IMG/VR virus record: IMGVR_UViG_3300027736_000047
Span: 1 to 62,193 of that record
Length of the DNA: 62,193 nucleotides
DNA from: a virus
Taxonomy: Duplodnaviria > Caudoviricetes
Strand: one strand, 5' to 3'
This document shows positions 44,587-61,882 of the stretch, in pieces. Every line of letters starts with the position of its first letter. Position 1 is the stretch's first letter. Position numbers and translations under genes: made by a program. The notes under the pieces were generated by a model. It saw nothing but the letters and a program-made list of their open reading frames with translations, was not told the DNA's origin and searched no databases.

Positions 44587-44910
44587 ATGGACGAACCAGA
44601 ATACTCCTGGAGATATAAAGCAAGATGCTCAGGTCAAGATACCGACATCTTCTACCCTCCTCGTGATAAAGAACAGTACAAAACAATTGCTGATCAAGCC
44701 AAGTCATTCTGTCTTGGTGATACAGGAAAGAACCACTGTCCAGTACGTGCCGAATGTTTATGGGACGCAGTCAAAAGAGATGAGCCACACGGGATCTGGG
44801 GTGGGTTAAGCCACAGAGAACGTAATGCCTTAATGCGAAAGTGGCAAAAGAGTTACAAAAAGAAACTGTCCCTAAAAGAATTTATTTTCAGTAAAGACAA
44901 GGAATACTAA
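44587..44910 (+). CDS. whiB: WhiB-family transcription factor
   Basis: W...A.C, AKSFC, CPVRAECL, GIWGGLS..ER. Confidence 0.93.
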   Translation: MDEPEYSWRYKARCSGQDTDIFYPPRDKEQYKTIADQAKSFCLGDTGKNHCPVRAECLWDAVKRDEPHGIWGGLSHRERNALMRKWQKSYKKKLSLKEFIFSKDKEY

Positions 44911-54837: not shown

Positions 54838-55326
54838 ATGAATATACTTGTATCACTAGACGGCGTACTTAGTTCGGACACAGGAGAACCAATCCGAGCA
54901 GGAGTAATGCTTTATTATGCTTTAAATTTAAATAACAGAGTGGCTCTTGTGACCTCAAGGAAGACTGAGGATGCAGAGCATTGGCTTCAATCCCATGGAA
55001 TCATCAACTATGATGATTTAATTGATTATTCTTTTAACCTTGAAGGTGAAGATTTAAAGAAACGTCAGTTTGTTATGAGCCGCAGTCGTGCTCCTATTGA
55101 GATGTATGTAGATGCTGATCCTGCTATGTGTGCGTGGGTATTTGAACAACAGGGTATCCCAGCCATTGTGTTTATGAATCCAGGGTATTTGGCTGTAGAA
55201 CATCGTCCCGATGCTCCTAAAAAGGTAAGAACATGGAATCAAATTGAAGAATCAATAAATAGAGTTAATGTTGCTAGATCAAAGGACGCAGCCAACCCAA
55301 AGGAACTAGAGTTCTGGGATGACTAA
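54838..55326 (+). CDS. HAD-superfamily-like protein (first Asp absent)
   Basis: ILVSLDGVL, LVTSR, WL, K, YVDAD. Confidence 0.75.
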   Translation: MNILVSLDGVLSSDTGEPIRAGVMLYYALNLNNRVALVTSRKTEDAEHWLQSHGIINYDDLIDYSFNLEGEDLKKRQFVMSRSRAPIEMYVDADPAMCAWVFEQQGIPAIVFMNPGYLAVEHRPDAPKKVRTWNQIEESINRVNVARSKDAANPKELEFWDD

Positions 55327-56824
55327 ACTTATATTTTCAGGTACTGAAGTTGGTTCCAATCGTACTTTGTTAGAAGGTATGAAAGTTGAGTCAATGGGAC
55401 TCAACTATTGGGGTCTTAGAAAACGTGGATTACCAAAGACAAAGTTATGGCTTATAAGCGAACACTTTACTCCAGAGACTCAAGTGTATGTTGAATCAGG
55501 CGCTGCCCAAGCAGACAAGGCTGGTTTATCAAAAGATGAGTTACTTGATTTAGCCGCAGACTATCAAGAGTTCCTAGTTAATAACGCAGACAGAGCCACA
55601 GCATTTCAAGAGTTTGATTCTTTAATTTTAGGCTTAGACTGGGTAGAAAAACAACGCCCCTTTTTCAGTAACGATCCAAAACTATGGGTAGTATGGCATC
55701 AAGAATACGGATTACCAACATTGAAAGAGATGTCACAGACGTATGGCAATGTCCTACTTCCTCACGCTGAGATTGAAGAGATAACTAACTTGGCGGCGGT
55801 CACCAGGAGTTACTCAAAGGAGTTTGGAACTAAGTACCATGCCCTTGGATGTGCTAAGCCAGACAATCTGAGACAGATACCATTTGTCACTGCCAGCACA
55901 TTGTCATGGCTATCGCCCATGAGAAGAGGAGAAACTATTATCTGGGATGGCACTAAGTTAGTGCGTTATCCAAAGAGAATGAAAGATCAAGCACGACCTA
56001 GATACAAGGCAATTGTGGAGAAGGCTGGACTAGACTATTTAGAGTTTGTACAAGATAGTGGAGTGGAATCAACTAAGGTTGCAGTCTGGTCATACAAGCG
56101 ATTAGAGGAATCAATGGACAAGAAAAGCCCTAATTTTCACATCATAAACGGTGGTAAGGGAGAGAAGTTATCTGATAATAGCGATGAGTTGTTAACAGGT
56201 CTTATGGGATTTGAAACCCCGTCATCTGATAACAGTGCTGTAGAAGTGCGGAAAGTTTCTGCCAGTGAAGTTGTGCAAAGAGATCCATCAGAGATTCAAA
56301 ACTTACCTGTCTTTGGGTATAAGATGAAGACAATAGTTGAAACTGATGAAGAAGGAAAGGATGTTCTTAAAGATGTTCCAATTATTAATAACCAGCACTC
56401 GTCACTTCGTCAATGCAATACCTGCTTTGTTGCCTCGAATTGTCCTGCTTTCAAACCTGACAATAGTTGTGCTTTCAACTTACCCGTTGAAGTAAAGACT
56501 AAAGATCAACTAAAGGCTTTACTTAACGCAATTATTGAAATGCAGGGCCAAAGAGTTGCTTTCATGCGTTTTGCAGAAGAAATGAATGGCGGATATGCTG
56601 ATCCCAATGTATCTCAAGAAATTGATCGTTTGTTTAAACTTGTTGGTAATTTAAAAGAATTAGAAGAAAATCGAGAGTTTGTTCGTATTACCGCAGAGCG
56701 TCAAAGTTCTGGCGGAGTTCTTTCTGCCATCTTTGGAGATCGAGCACAAGCACTTCGTGAACTACCCGATACTCTTAAAGAAGATACAGTAACAAAAATT
56801 ATTCAGCAATCAATAGAAGATTAG
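55319..56824 (+). CDS. TGT/DpdA-like TIM-barrel protein fused to a Cys4 plus helical C-terminal domain
   Basis: VESGA, VWH, HALG, F.TASTLSW resemble DSGA/HxLG/DSSSW; CNTC.....CP.......C. Confidence 0.6.
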   Translation: MTKLIFSGTEVGSNRTLLEGMKVESMGLNYWGLRKRGLPKTKLWLISEHFTPETQVYVESGAAQADKAGLSKDELLDLAADYQEFLVNNADRATAFQEFDSLILGLDWVEKQRPFFSNDPKLWVVWHQEYGLPTLKEMSQTYGNVLLPHAEIEEITNLAAVTRSYSKEFGTKYHALGCAKPDNLRQIPFVTASTLSWLSPMRRGETIIWDGTKLVRYPKRMKDQARPRYKAIVEKAGLDYLEFVQDSGVESTKVAVWSYKRLEESMDKKSPNFHIINGGKGEKLSDNSDELLTGLMGFETPSSDNSAVEVRKVSASEVVQRDPSEIQNLPVFGYKMKTIVETDEEGKDVLKDVPIINNQHSSLRQCNTCFVASNCPAFKPDNSCAFNLPVEVKTKDQLKALLNAIIEMQGQRVAFMRFAEEMNGGYADPNVSQEIDRLFKLVGNLKELEENREFVRITAERQSSGGVLSAIFGDRAQALRELPDTLKEDTVTKIIQQSIED

Positions 56825-59035: not shown

Positions 59036-59054
59036 CCTTTTGGTATTGCTTTGC

Positions 59055-59207
59055 TTAAGCCTCACCTTTTGGTGGGGCTTCTGCTTTTACTTCTAGTTTG
59101 TCTACATAACTACCAATAGGTTCTGCGTGGCTATCGCAACAAACTGACCCATCTACCCATACATACCATTCAACTTTATTAGCACAGTCTTCTACATAAC
59201 ACTTCAC
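59055..59207 (-). CDS. Small Cys/His protein (50 aa)
   Basis: GTG start with GAGGTGG RBS overlapping upstream stop; C....C...CC..H. Confidence 0.6.
   Translation of the reverse strand: MKCYVEDCANKVEWYVWVDGSVCCDSHAEPIGSYVDKLEVKAEAPPKGEA
59058..59088 (+). terminator. Intrinsic terminator after nrdJ at the strand convergence
   Basis: AGCCTCACC-TTTT-GGTGGGGCT then TCTGCTTTT. Confidence 0.65.
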
Positions 59208-59560
59208 TTTTCCACCTCTTTTGGTATGGCTTTGCTTTGCTTGGCTATGACTTTGCAATACGCTGTCTTGTGAATCTTTACTTTGTCTTCAATTTTTAAT
59301 AGAGGTCTAATGTCTATATTGTGTTTAAGAACTACCTTTGTTATGGCTTGTTCACATGCAGGACAGACTAATACCAAACATTCTGTTGTTGTATAGTCTT
59401 TCCGCCAGCCTAAATGGATTAACTTATTCCAAAACAATTCTTCGGTATATGGAATAAAACTTAATTCTTCTTGATAATAATGTTTATACTGAGTTTGCTT
59501 GTGCTTTATATACCCCTGATTTAAGTCGTCATAGCGATCTACAAATTGTTTCCCATTCAT
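59204..59560 (-). CDS. Hypothetical protein with CxxC...H...C
   Basis: AGGAG RBS; CPAC. Confidence 0.65.
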   Translation of the reverse strand: MNGKQFVDRYDDLNQGYIKHKQTQYKHYYQEELSFIPYTEELFWNKLIHLGWRKDYTTTECLVLVCPACEQAITKVVLKHNIDIRPLLKIEDKVKIHKTAYCKVIAKQSKAIPKEVEK

Positions 59561-59578
59561 ATCCGCTCCTAACTAACT

Positions 59579-59612
59579 GACTAACTTCTCCTGGTTGCCA
59601 GGTAAGTTAGTT
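59579..59612. repeat. Imperfect palindrome site A
   Basis: GACTAACT-N18-AGTTAGTT with inner CCTGG/CCAGG. Confidence 0.75.
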
Positions 59613-59619
59613 CTGAGAT

Positions 59620-59643
59620 AGCCCCACCATTTCTGATGGGGCT
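59620..59643. terminator. GC-rich stem-loop (possible terminator)
   Basis: AGCCCCA/TGGGGCT. Confidence 0.45.
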
Positions 59644-59686
59644 TCTCCTATTGCTTTGCTTTACTACGCTTCTGCTATGGCTTTTG

Positions 59687-60316
59687 CTATTGCTTTGCTT
59701 TTACTACAAGGAACTGTTCCATTAACTGTTCAGTCTTTGGGGTAATTCCATGCCAAGCATTCCAATTTTTACCACCATTACTCATGTAATAAGTAATGGT
59801 CGCATTGACCACAGGGTTGAGCAGTTCGGCATTAGATTTTAATCCAAACTTATCTCTACGATCTTGACCTAACTCTCCAAGCATATTTATTTGAAACATG
59901 CCCCACGAGTTATCGCCTGTGTCTGTATTTCCATTGTGAGCGAGAGGTCGCCCATTACTTTCTTTCTTAGCGACTGCCCATGCTTCTTGAAGGTCTTGAC
60001 CTTTGAAGCCTACGGCTTGTAGCAACTCGACCAATTCTATATCGGTCAAAGTATTAGCGTTCTGATACTTTTTCAAAGTTGCTTCTCTCTTTGTTTGTTG
60101 AACTAACTGGGCTTCGGCTTTAGTTGGCGCAAAGGCTATGGAAGTTCCAAATGCCATTAAACCAGTTGCTAGGATCAAAACGATCCCACCTACTCCTAGT
60201 GCTTTTAGTTTTGCTTTGGCTCGGCGGTTTTGCTCTGCCATTACCTTTGCTGATGCTTTTGCTATTGCTTTGGCATCTGCTTCGGCTCTGTTGATTATCT
60301 TGTTATTCATCATCAC
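59687..60316 (-). CDS. Membrane-anchored/secreted lytic transglycosylase (SLT/lysozyme-like)
   Basis: TM segment; A..ESNG, GMFQIN, LLNP..NA, W.AW. Confidence 0.85.
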   Translation of the reverse strand: MMMNNKIINRAEADAKAIAKASAKVMAEQNRRAKAKLKALGVGGIVLILATGLMAFGTSIAFAPTKAEAQLVQQTKREATLKKYQNANTLTDIELVELLQAVGFKGQDLQEAWAVAKKESNGRPLAHNGNTDTGDNSWGMFQINMLGELGQDRRDKFGLKSNAELLNPVVNATITYYMSNGGKNWNAWHGITPKTEQLMEQFLVVKAKQ

Positions 60317-61650
60317 TCCAAATAGCCATTGGCACTTTCAGATGCCTTTGACTGGTGTGAACGAAGGCGGTGTAAATACCGCTCTGTCGTCTTGATCGAT
60401 TGATGACCTAATCGCTCTTTTACTTCATGGACATCTACGCCGTTCTTTAATAACTGCGTAGCGTTGGCATGTCGTAAATCGTGAGTTCTAGGAAACCAGC
60501 CGATTGCGGACTTGGCTATTGCTTTGTTCCATGTTGTTCTCCATACATCACGAGGCATGTGGCTCATATTGTTGATGAAACTCCCTTGCTCTTGCTTCTG
60601 CTGATGCTTCTGCTTTGCCTTACGGCTTCGGCTTCCTACCTGCTTTGCTTCTGCTAGTGCTTCTGCTTGGGCTTTGGCTTTGCGGTAGTTTCCTACTGCT
60701 TGCCTACACCCTTCGCATCTACAACCCCCATGTGTATAGGAGTAGAGAGTTCCATGCTGGAACTGTTTTCCGCCCTTCTCGAATGGTCGAGGGGGCTTTG
60801 CGCCTTGTGAACCTTTAAGTTTACTCTCCGTTAATAGTATTGTTCTTGGGAACATCAGATCATCTTTTGCTATGCCTTTTGCTAGGACATACGCTTTTAA
60901 TTGCTGTAATAGGGCTTTGCTTACTACTAAACTTCGCTTTTGCCCCGACTTCGTGGCATCTACCACTAGAAATCTCTCACCTTTGTTATACGCCTTGCCT
61001 AGATCACTAACTCGCCTTTGAATAAATATCTCGCCAGTTTTGAAATTAATGTCTTTTGCTCTTACTTCTGTGGCTTCCCCATAGCGACACCCACTTGCTA
61101 CTAGGAACTGGGCAAATAGTTTAGTTCCGTTAGTTGGTAGGTGCTTCACTATCTCTTTGAACTCGTCAGGCTCTAATACATTGGAAATATCGGCATGATT
61201 AATTTTGATCTTAATTCCATGAGTAGGATTAATTTCCATTTTTCCAGCACTAACTAACTTAGAAAACATAGAGCCAAGAGAAGCCTTAACTTGATTGAGC
61301 GTTGCGGGCTTAACGCCACTTAATTTGAGATCATCAATTAACTTAACTAACTCTGAAGGCTTCAGGGAAGTTAGTTCCCGATCTCCTATAACTGGAATTA
61401 CAAATCTAGTTAAGACCGATTTATAGCCCTTCTTTGTAATCGGCATGAGGTCAGATACCGCCAGCCATTGATCTACATAATCGCCTACCTTCAAATTAGC
61501 CCTTAAAGGGGGCATAGAGCCACACTTCTCCCCCTGTATGGCGTGATACATGGCTTCGGTTTCATTAGCCCATGTGCCAGCCGATACACGCCGATTTCCA
61601 AGCCTGTAATAGCCAGTAAATCTGCCGTTGCGCTCAATCACATACGCCAT
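60313..61650 (-). CDS. Tyrosine recombinase/integrase with ~90 aa Cys/His insertion
   Basis: GCRYGE (R), TKS (K), HDLRH, LGH, TERY (Y); N-terminal arm-binding-like and core-binding domains. Confidence 0.92.
   Translation of the reverse strand: MAYVIERNGRFTGYYRLGNRRVSAGTWANETEAMYHAIQGEKCGSMPPLRANLKVGDYVDQWLAVSDLMPITKKGYKSVLTRFVIPVIGDRELTSLKPSELVKLIDDLKLSGVKPATLNQVKASLGSMFSKLVSAGKMEINPTHGIKIKINHADISNVLEPDEFKEIVKHLPTNGTKLFAQFLVASGCRYGEATEVRAKDINFKTGEIFIQRRVSDLGKAYNKGERFLVVDATKSGQKRSLVVSKALLQQLKAYVLAKGIAKDDLMFPRTILLTESKLKGSQGAKPPRPFEKGGKQFQHGTLYSYTHGGCRCEGCRQAVGNYRKAKAQAEALAEAKQVGSRSRKAKQKHQQKQEQGSFINNMSHMPRDVWRTTWNKAIAKSAIGWFPRTHDLRHANATQLLKNGVDVHEVKERLGHQSIKTTERYLHRLRSHQSKASESANGYLE
61345..61376. 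repeat. Imperfect palindrome site B (inside recombinase ORF)
   Basis: AACTAACT-N16-AGTTAGTT with inner CTGAAG/CTTCAG. Confidence 0.7.
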
Positions 61651-61664
61651 AATTCCCCCACGCT

Positions 61665-61709
61665 CTACTGGCGAGTAACCTACTGGTGGGTAATGTTACT
61701 CACCAGTAG
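61665..61709. repeat. Three abutting 15-mers CTACTGGYGRGTAAY (two direct, one inverted)
   Basis: 61665-61679, 61680-61694, inverted 61695-61709. Confidence 0.85.
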
Positions 61710-61721
61710 GTTCTTAGTCAA
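61693..61721 (-). promoter_or_regulatory. SigA-type promoter of the recombinase
   Basis: TTGACT-N17-TAACAT on minus strand, ~40 nt upstream of ATG. Confidence 0.7.
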
Positions 61722-61758
61722 AAAATAGCCCCTAGCCCAATTCGGATTAGGGGATTAT
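61720..61758 (-). terminator. Intrinsic terminator
   Basis: ATAATCCCCTAATCCG...GGGCTAGGGGCTAT followed by T-run on minus strand. Confidence 0.75.
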
Positions 61759-61795
61759 CTATTAACTACATAAAGAATTAGGCGGTCAGGATTTG

Positions 61796-61881
61796 AACTA
61801 ACTCGGTGGAACACCTGAGAAGTTAGTCAATGGGAAAGTCTGGGCGTGAACTAACTTTTCTGGATTTGAATAAAGTTAGTT
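61796..61881. repeat. Imperfect palindrome sites C and D
   Basis: AACTAACT-N17-AGTTAGTC (61796-61828) and AACTAACT-N17-AGTTAGTT (61849-61881). Confidence 0.75.
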
Positions 61882-61882
61882 C

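Follow-up and report, generated by a model that had tools for sequence, protein, structure and literature searches.

A conserved His-Cys3 mini-domain inserted in the catalytic domain of a freshwater phage tyrosine integrase

What is a cysteine-rich mini-domain doing inside the catalytic domain of a phage integrase whose active site is complete? The gene that raises this question, int, encodes a tyrosine integrase of 445 residues (P0001) near the right end of the IMG/VR virus record IMGVR_UViG_3300027736_000047. We analyzed the whole of this record, a linear stretch of 62,193 bases (estimated completeness 62%) that we call the window. int heads a short minus-strand operon, and its stop codon overlaps the start of the next gene, which encodes an SLT_3 lysozyme-like protein. 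We propose that the insertion, about 95 residues long, is a zinc-stabilized, tethered accessory DNA-binding module that lies in the segment where integron integrases carry their I2 helix and that tunes site choice or synapsis. We give this reading a probability of about 0.6. As it is also found on phage nucleases and DNA-binding proteins, the module is probably an extra DNA-gripping part of the integrase that is absent from domain catalogues.

The protein that carries the insertion is a PF00589 tyrosine recombinase with the full R-K-H-R-H-Y set. Its parts are given below, with column conservation computed over 67 distinct family sequences and with pLDDT standing for the predicted local distance difference test score of AlphaFold (AF2) models.

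60313..61650, minus strand: int, tyrosine integrase of 445 residues (PF00589, 80.1 bits; phrog_1, E 5e-52)
61516..61650, minus strand: N-terminal arm-binding-type domain, residues 1-45, three strands and a helix (AF2 prediction only)
61201..61488, minus strand: core-binding (SAM-like) domain, residues ~55-150 (PF14659 at residues 56-108, 23.0 bits, cut-off 22.6)
60847..61173, minus strand: catalytic domain, first part, residues 160-268, ending with DDLMFP (Pfam, alignments)
61084-61086, minus strand: R189
60937-60939, minus strand: K238
60796..60846, minus strand: leading linker of the insertion, residues 269-285 (pLDDT <50 at 278-285; conservation 0.67)
60676..60795, minus strand: His-Cys3 module core, residues 286-325 (conservation 0.79; isolated-module model)
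60754-60756, minus strand: H299, putative metal ligand
60721-60723, minus strand: C310, putative metal ligand
60715-60717, minus strand: C312, putative metal ligand
60706-60708, minus strand: C315, putative metal ligand
60562..60675, minus strand: variable K/A/Q-rich helix tail and low-complexity return linker, residues 326-363 (gapped, length-variable)
60316..60561, minus strand: catalytic domain, second part, residues 364-445 (Pfam, alignments; conservation 0.96)
60481-60483, minus strand: H390, start of HDLRH
60472-60474, minus strand: R393
60403-60405, minus strand: H416
60376-60378, minus strand: Y425

The match to PF00589 (Phage_integrase; cut-off 27.1 bits) consists of two stretches split by the insertion, and R189, K234, K238, H390, R393, H416 and Y425 are invariant in an alignment of 28 sequences (45-86% identity). 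A full-length AlphaFold model built on a 28-sequence alignment (mean pLDDT 70.4) begins with a three-stranded sheet and a helix, which are followed by the helical core-binding domain and the catalytic domain. In fold it comes closest to lambda Int at full length (1z1b_A, E 2e-9), with the Tn1549 integrase and IntI4 (2a3v) also among the best matches. On the basis of this model, the int product is a lambda/Tn916-type tyrosine integrase with a predicted arm-binding domain (strands 3-7, 10-17 and 20-27, helix 30-43; pLDDT 85-90). No Pfam arm-binding model matched the window integrase, and PF22022 and PF24624 fell below cut-off. The Xer models were all under cut-off (XerA 88.5 against 220 bits, XerC 75.5 against 335, XerD 73.8 against 330), as were the IntI models (TIGR02249 85.2 against 265 bits, NF011946 55.8 against 435). 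At residues 212-232 the protein has about 17-21 residues more than the archaeal Xer structure 4a8e, and the model pLDDT there is <50. Two homologues, P0053 and P0071, have a second, Ser/Thr/Lys-rich low-complexity insertion of ~38 residues (alignment columns 262-300), which lies in the loop joining the first catalytic-domain strands.

Comparison with insertion-less relatives bounds the full insertion at residues 269-363 (60562-60846), between DDLMFP (residues 263-268) and the helix preceding HDLRH. The stretch flagged in the original prediction, 60565-60835, covers codons ~273-362 (in-frame limits 60565-60837). In the model, helix 245-258 is followed by a strand, and the insertion is attached to the loop that leads from this strand to the helix before HxxR. 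Residues 269-363 are unmatched in the integrases of three actinophages (phiT46-1, Schmidt and Rabbitrun), which have a short loop instead, and residues 259-364 face ~19 residues in 4a8e. Because the motif is kept across homologues and insertion-less actinophage integrases have a short loop at this place, we regard the insertion as real and in frame, and not as a chance pattern.

Within the module core, the order of elements is a beta-hairpin, the His, a short helix, CxCxxC and the start of a basic helix with Y322-R323. The stretch from H299 to C315, HGTLYSYTHGGCRCEGC (60706-60756), has the ligand spacing H-x10-C-x-C-x2-C. Modeled in isolation (57 residues, 58-row alignment), the module gives a pLDDT of 91.6, with strands at 7-9 and 12-14 and helices at 19-23 and 30-56 of the modeled segment. 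It thus has what generally marks a zinc knuckle, four conserved ligands in a short unit predicted to fold alone. The 17-residue leader and the variable-length return linker are predicted to be disordered, and residues 339-360 of the return region have a model pLDDT <50. The K/A/Q-rich linker is encoded by degenerate copies of the same hexamer-periodic DNA word as a 17-mer array in the operon, to which we return below.

The module is kept throughout the close family. Among 5.8 billion proteins searched, 613 were relatives, and the H299/C310/C312/C315 motif is present in all of the best 120 (including eight entries shortened in length). In IMG/VR, relatives were found on 260 contigs, and none of the best 80 loci has lost the His or any of the three Cys (80/80); two of these loci are substituted at the Gly or Thr of the motif, and one has a frameshift downstream of the module, within the low-complexity tail. 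H299, T301, Y305, G308, C310, R311, C312 and C315 are invariant in 28/28 aligned homologues (45-86% identity). Column conservation of the module core (0.79) is like that of the arm-binding domain (0.77), the core-binding domain (0.74) and the first catalytic part (0.81). It falls to 0.17, the lowest stretch, in the helix tail (residues 326-337) and is 0.42 in the return linker (residues 338-362). This difference between core and flanks indicates that the insertion is a conserved mini-domain on variable linkers. The original prediction of a Cys/His module set in an otherwise intact catalytic domain is borne out, and these counts show that the module is conserved.

Conservation extends to distant relatives. 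When 1.84 billion cluster representatives were searched exhaustively with HMMER, 30,818 were integrase relatives at E<=0.001, and 78 of these remained at E<=1e-30. CxCxxC lies at the equivalent place, 55-75 residues before HxLRH, in 104/151 sequences (the best 150 plus the query); these representatives are 25-67% identical to the query, and the motif is retained down to 25%. In 58/58 diverse integrases, with 24-65% identity to the window protein over the module region, the H, G, Y, C, C and C are invariant. Over 99 copies the consensus is G-R-x-Y-x-H-G-T-x-x-A-Y-x-x-G-x-C-R-C-x-x-C-R-x-A-x-x-x-Y-R-x-x-R-R, and the 25-residue stretch C-terminal to the last Cys has the conserved Y-R-x-x-R-R and a net charge of +5 (median). 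A high-GC representative, P0178, has 2,458 relatives at E<=1e-20, and the motif is present in 118 of its 120 best matches, the remaining two having a single Cys-to-Tyr change each. Relatives of P0178 include proteins of cultured Actinomycetota, namely Sporichthya polymorpha (two), Kineosporia babensis (two), Kineosporia mesophila, Phytohabitans aurantiacus and Dactylosporangium, which NCBI labels only 'tyrosine-type recombinase/integrase'. Among isolated-phage records, none covered >=80% of either of two module-bearing queries (0/250 and 0/153 records), and a plasmid collection searched with P0178 gave a single partial, unrelated match. An apparent overlap of the module with Cluster-K-type mycobacteriophage integrases was rejected; the match, in JAWS, is a spurious tblastn extension with no Cys motif.

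The distribution of the module on a tree indicates that it comes and goes. We built a FastTree phylogeny from 122 of the 151 sequences (29 were dropped for a length <330 or >560 residues) after removing the insertion columns. Presence of the motif (84 with, 38 without) requires 19 changes, 13 of them forced by well-supported branches; labels shuffled on the same tree require 32.6 on average. Among the 38 motif-less relatives, 30 have 2-38 residues in the region, a clean absence, and eight keep a 68-111-residue insertion that has lost a ligand or the Tyr. Given these changes, at least 13-19 in number, the sequences indicate that the module is old in this integrase group, repeatedly lost and more rarely gained, and an accessory rather than an essential part of the fold. 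The idea that the insertion defines one recombinase subfamily, put forward in the original prediction, does not hold.

The same mini-domain occurs on proteins that are not integrases. A tblastn search with residues 283-326 matched 68 of 50,697 phage records, all weakly (E 5e-4 to 10), the best at 47-55% identity over 29-36 residues (E 5e-4 to 3e-3). The module lies C-terminal to an HNH domain in Felixounavirus homing endonucleases and in a Vibrio phage, is present in two copies N-terminal to the Endonuclease_7 domain of a Microbacterium phage endonuclease VII, makes up a 75-residue Acinetobacter phage protein alone and is found in actinophage proteins annotated as helix-turn-helix (HTH) DNA-binding. 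PHROG families annotated as HNH endonuclease, integrase and HTH protein match the same module residues. Against predicted viral structures, the module model matched 'Integrase [uncultured Caudovirales phage]' (E 1.6e-4, root-mean-square deviation 0.5 A over 47 residues), followed by small Rhodococcus, Mycobacterium and Microbacterium phage proteins (0.4-0.9 A over 30-37 residues). Together, the tblastn and predicted-structure matches confirm that the HGT...Y...CRC..C motif is found in small actinophage proteins, as had been stated. A back-translated DNA pattern found the motif in 9/401 Actinomycetota genomes (11 matches; reversed control, 0), in non-integrase open reading frames of 147-559 residues, several with two copies and one with HTH_3. 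Four actinobacterial loci (L130, L133, L131 and L137) encode proteins of 147-198 residues that are made up for the most part of two tandem HGT..Y..C.C..C units, with a basic helix after each unit; by sequence, this type looks like an uncatalogued family of tandem zinc-knuckle proteins.

No curated family covers the module. No Pfam model did so in 15 module-bearing proteins (P0001, four phage proteins, the excised insertion and nine genomic open reading frames), and no NCBIfam model did so in the three scanned. No Pfam NUMOD model matched at E<=1, whether in P0001, in the excised insertion or in any of the four phage proteins. A word-indexed search for short module-bearing proteins yielded no candidates, and residues 286-335 matched only unnamed clusters in the ESM Atlas (best score 0.83). 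In the literature outside subscription journals, we found no tyrosine recombinase described as carrying a zinc or Cys/His module. In the text of a classification of tyrosine recombinases (PMC8138268), 'zinc' and 'cysteine' each occur 0 times; its appendix figures and supplements could bear on this. The module is thus undescribed so far in Pfam, NCBIfam, the PDB and the literature searched, although its sequences have long been in databases under generic names.

How might such a module work? The insertion starts with a flexible leader, continues with a mini-domain of 40 residues and ends in a variable, low-complexity tail by which the chain rejoins the core. In the mini-domain, zinc would most likely be held by one His and three Cys and would staple the beta-hairpin and short helix onto the start of the long basic helix. 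Because the His and three Cys fall within 17 residues of a self-folding unit, the module most likely has a structural zinc site. The mini-domain appears to be an autonomous module, widely shuffled among actinobacteria and phages, and it most likely binds nucleic acid, since its helix starts with basic residues and its partners are nucleases, HTH proteins and tandem arrays. Within the integrase, it would add a third, tethered contact to DNA to those made by the arm-binding and core-binding parts. The knuckle could reach the partner duplex or the DNA next to the core site and thereby tune site choice or synapsis. We think that a tethered accessory DNA contact is best supported because I2, in the same segment, docks extrahelical bases of the substrate DNA.

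Several points weigh against this proposal. The full-length model is of moderate quality only (pLDDT 70.4). The module has no clear fold match in the PDB (best VIA-align Z 3.6, helix-driven; best Foldseek E 5), although with a 57-residue query model a missing match does not make the fold new, and a PDB sequence search with the module found no match either. Because no solved structure or curated family matches, the argument for DNA binding is one from partner domains only, and metal binding, too, is deduced from sequence. Since 30 of 122 relatives cleanly lack the module and eight have degenerate copies with a lost ligand, it is dispensable for the recombinase fold and perhaps for recombination too. 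Lastly, neither attP nor attB was identified in our searches.

The module could instead be a protein-protein element whose long, zinc-stapled helix finds its partner in a neighboring integrase subunit, in a directionality factor or in some protein of the host. It would then control assembly or the direction of recombination with no contact to DNA. A helix of ~27 residues is indeed its most prominent predicted feature, the structure search gave only coiled-coil-like matches (Z<=3.6), the subunit interface in the structure of the integron integrase IntI4 reportedly lies near the insertion point, and repeated loss fits a regulatory accessory. We nevertheless consider this unlikely. The conserved part is the knuckle with the first basic turns of the helix, and the remainder of the helix scores 0.17; the helix is basic, not amphipathic and hydrophobic; and recurrence with unrelated partners (nucleases, HTH) and in tandem is typical for nucleic-acid-binding modules. 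It is very unlikely that the His-Cys3 set holds an iron-sulfur cluster or redox switch that couples the integrase to the state of the host, in the manner of WhiB. The Cys-rich motif does occur in an actinobacterial setting, and the phage encodes a WhiB (44587-44907), but the fold matches to WhiB-like viral proteins (E 3.5-5.9) are weak and far from significance, H-x10-C-x-C-x2-C in a hairpin-helix unit of ~40 residues is typical of structural zinc knuckles, and the module is also found on nucleases of Gram-negative phages, where there is no WhiB context. Least probable of all, with only a marginal chance, is a functionless relic, such as the DNA-binding remnant of a homing endonuclease or intein that invaded int. 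The module is common to HNH homing endonucleases, the insertion sits in a conserved gene beside low-complexity sequence, and it has been lost many times. However, the four ligands and several other positions are retained down to 25% overall identity, the module core is conserved like the rest of the protein, Pfam detected no nuclease domain in the integrase, and a reading of the sequence found no intein splice motifs flanking the insertion. The conservation and the missing splice motifs led us to reject an intein or homing-endonuclease relic.

A further alternative gives the module a specific target, the 17-mer array that runs from inside int through the downstream genes:

59037..60880, plus strand: 17-mer array CTTTTGCTATTGCTTTG, 9 copies with <=3 mismatches, 0.41 expected

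All nine copies are on the plus strand, antisense to int, and the sense word in the orientation of int is CAAAGCAATAGCAAAAG. The array is real on these counts, and it is present in 80/80 related module-bearing loci in 3-13 copies each and in the same orientation, with one antisense hit overall and never upstream of int. Its clusters are at fixed places along the conserved int-SLT-c1 order: two within int, one each at the 5' and 3' ends of the SLT-type lysozyme gene, and one where the gene after that terminates. In other strains, represented by contigs of two metagenome runs from lakes (X6 and X1), there is a clean deletion of 163-172 bases (window 59054-59229) whose ends are two copies of the 17-mer and which removes a 67-residue open reading frame (59055-59258). 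Further, weaker contig joints also begin or finish near copies of the word. These observations would suit a module that reads the word, and they cover one half of the co-occurrence check put forward in the original prediction, the count having been made in module-bearing loci. Against this reading, because the module is widespread in thousands of high-GC integrases and in unrelated proteins, the AT-rich word is unlikely to be its general target. The predicted arm-binding domain is a more ordinary candidate reader, and strict strand specificity over ~1.8 kb of mostly coding DNA fits a signal at the level of RNA or transcription equally well. We consider it quite unlikely that the module specifically reads the array.

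A bolder version is more of a long shot still. In it, the catalytic-domain loop from which integron integrases got their I2 helix would be a general hot spot of innovation, where capture of a mobile zinc knuckle produced a 'three-handed' integrase with an arm contact, a core contact and the tethered knuckle. The knuckle would read the strand-specific 17-mer, possibly as single-stranded or structured DNA, and deletions or exchanges between copies of the word would be driven, as the clean deletion in other strains might illustrate. If true, freshwater actinophages would have a word-guided system of rearrangement that resembles an integron. An integron-like cassette reading of the word array was rejected on the evidence of gene order, with int-SLT-c1 fixed in 55/55 loci, and is kept as a low-probability reading only.

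We return to the surroundings of the module. Further features in and around the int operon are these:

59687-60316, minus strand: gene for an SLT_3 lysozyme-like, membrane-anchored protein (Pfam E 8e-16)
59605-61882: 6 of 8 exact copies of the 9-mer GAACTAACT, in direct and inverted pairs
61677-61712: 17-bp inverted repeat, 2 bases between arms, 94% complementary, 27 bases upstream of the int start

Pairs of GAACTAACT lie at 59570-59613 and 61785-61882, two intergenic regions that flank the operon, and the copies may be arm-type or operator sites. The inverted repeat is a candidate operator or terminator; one contig (X7) has three substitutions and a 1-base insertion in it. An SLT_3 lysozyme is an unusual partner for an integrase, and the order int-SLT-c1 is kept in each of the 55 loci compared.

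The remainder of the window points to the kind of phage involved. Genes for the portal, the major head protein, the baseplate and both the sheath and the tube of the tail identify a myovirus; the window also encodes a DNA polymerase, a helicase-primase and a RecA-like protein. There is a ribonucleotide reductase gene, and two further genes are of note:

44587-44907, plus strand: WhiB-type regulator (gene annotation)
55319-56821, plus strand: queuine tRNA-ribosyltransferase-like protein (phrog_887, E 6e-55)

The latter may provide 7-deazaguanine DNA modification in the phage. In Mycobacterium phage Scarlett, a queuine tRNA-ribosyltransferase gene is directly upstream of the integrase. The window stretch, with 40% G+C, was detected in 20 runs from 16 studies (labels: 15 freshwater or lake water, one 'metagenome', one unlabelled). 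The source is an uncultured freshwater myovirus of about 100 kb. Its hosts are most likely low-GC Actinomycetota, an assignment based on the WhiB gene, the exclusively actinobacterial integrase relatives, the G+C content and the freshwater runs.

Integration by this phage is predicted from the integrase. In a collection with one genome each of 185,579 species, no prophage copy was found, and the nearest relatives of the integrase family, all in Actinomycetota, are <=29% identical; the His-Cys3 motif is absent from all 22 loci of these relatives. The family is present on 260 viral contigs, against no relative above 29% identity in the species genomes. Either the host genomes are poorly represented or the phage is rarely or never a prophage. 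No tRNA genes were found in the window. Comparison of the region upstream of int with one Nanopelagicales-type genome and 301 genomes of its order, in a search for attB, gave only chance-level matches of 17-32 nt, none near a tRNA in the 301 genomes, and contigs from four runs had no clear attL/attR junction.

Tyrosine recombinases are major tools and drivers of gene mobility. To our knowledge, a change of substrate choice by acquisition of a whole domain is known essentially from one case, the I2 helix of integrons. The insertion described here is a second, much larger one in the same segment, and it is no rarity: of the 150 cluster representatives nearest to the query, about two thirds have it. 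Module-bearing integrases are encoded by abundant freshwater phages and also by the chromosomes of cultured Actinomycetota. Defining the mini-domain should improve the annotation of many 'hypothetical' actinophage proteins, and natural sister integrases with and without it are a ready-made experiment on how an added DNA reader affects site choice.

How does the window integrase compare with known systems? The integron integrases IntI1 and VchIntIA/IntI4 are likewise tyrosine recombinases with an extra element inside the catalytic domain, and IntI4 (2a3v) is among the best fold and sequence matches of the window integrase. The original prediction placed the insertion at a slightly different position from I2. 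Alignment anchors and IntI1 numbering, taken from part of PMC7790495, instead put both in the segment from the catalytic-Lys hairpin to the HxxR helix: in IntI1, catalytic K174 and the I2 residues K219/Y220 are ~45 residues apart, and in the window integrase the module core begins 48 residues after K238. The two positions are not clearly different. The two elements differ in kind. I2 is a plain helix of ~20 residues, described in the same part of PMC7790495 as found in no other protein, whereas the insertion has ~95 residues and a His-Cys3 knuckle common to many unrelated proteins. The window has neither the I2 helix itself nor the variable cassette array of an integron. IntI integrases are not known to have an arm-binding domain, whereas one is predicted in the window integrase.

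The closest annotated relatives are integrases of the actinophages phiT46-1 and JAWS (Mycobacterium) and Schmidt and Rabbitrun (Gordonia), at 25-28% identity. They share the N-terminal part, the core-binding part and the catalytic residues with the window integrase, but all four have a short loop and no insertion. For the IntTn916/pSAM2-type subgroup, the classification of Smyshlyaev et al. 2021 (PMC8138268) gives additional residues that separate catalytic-domain strands two and three, and the extra residues of the window integrase may correspond to these. In HNH and endonuclease VII nucleases and in small actinophage proteins, the HGT..Y..C.C..C unit is alike in sequence and predicted fold; there it is terminal, tandem or free-standing, whereas in the window integrase it is inserted within a domain. 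Depositors have labeled these proteins for their other domain only, or as hypothetical. With the NUMOD-type domains of homing endonucleases, the module has only the co-occurrence with HNH and endonuclease VII in common. Large serine integrases have a small zinc-ribbon domain joined to a long helix that reads the outer attachment site. This is a working analogy, although it concerns another superfamily and another zinc fold, and our module searches gave no sequence or fold match to it. In sum, the recombinase family is a known one and the hot spot for insertion has one well-studied precedent, and the inserted module is undescribed in the catalogues and literature searched.

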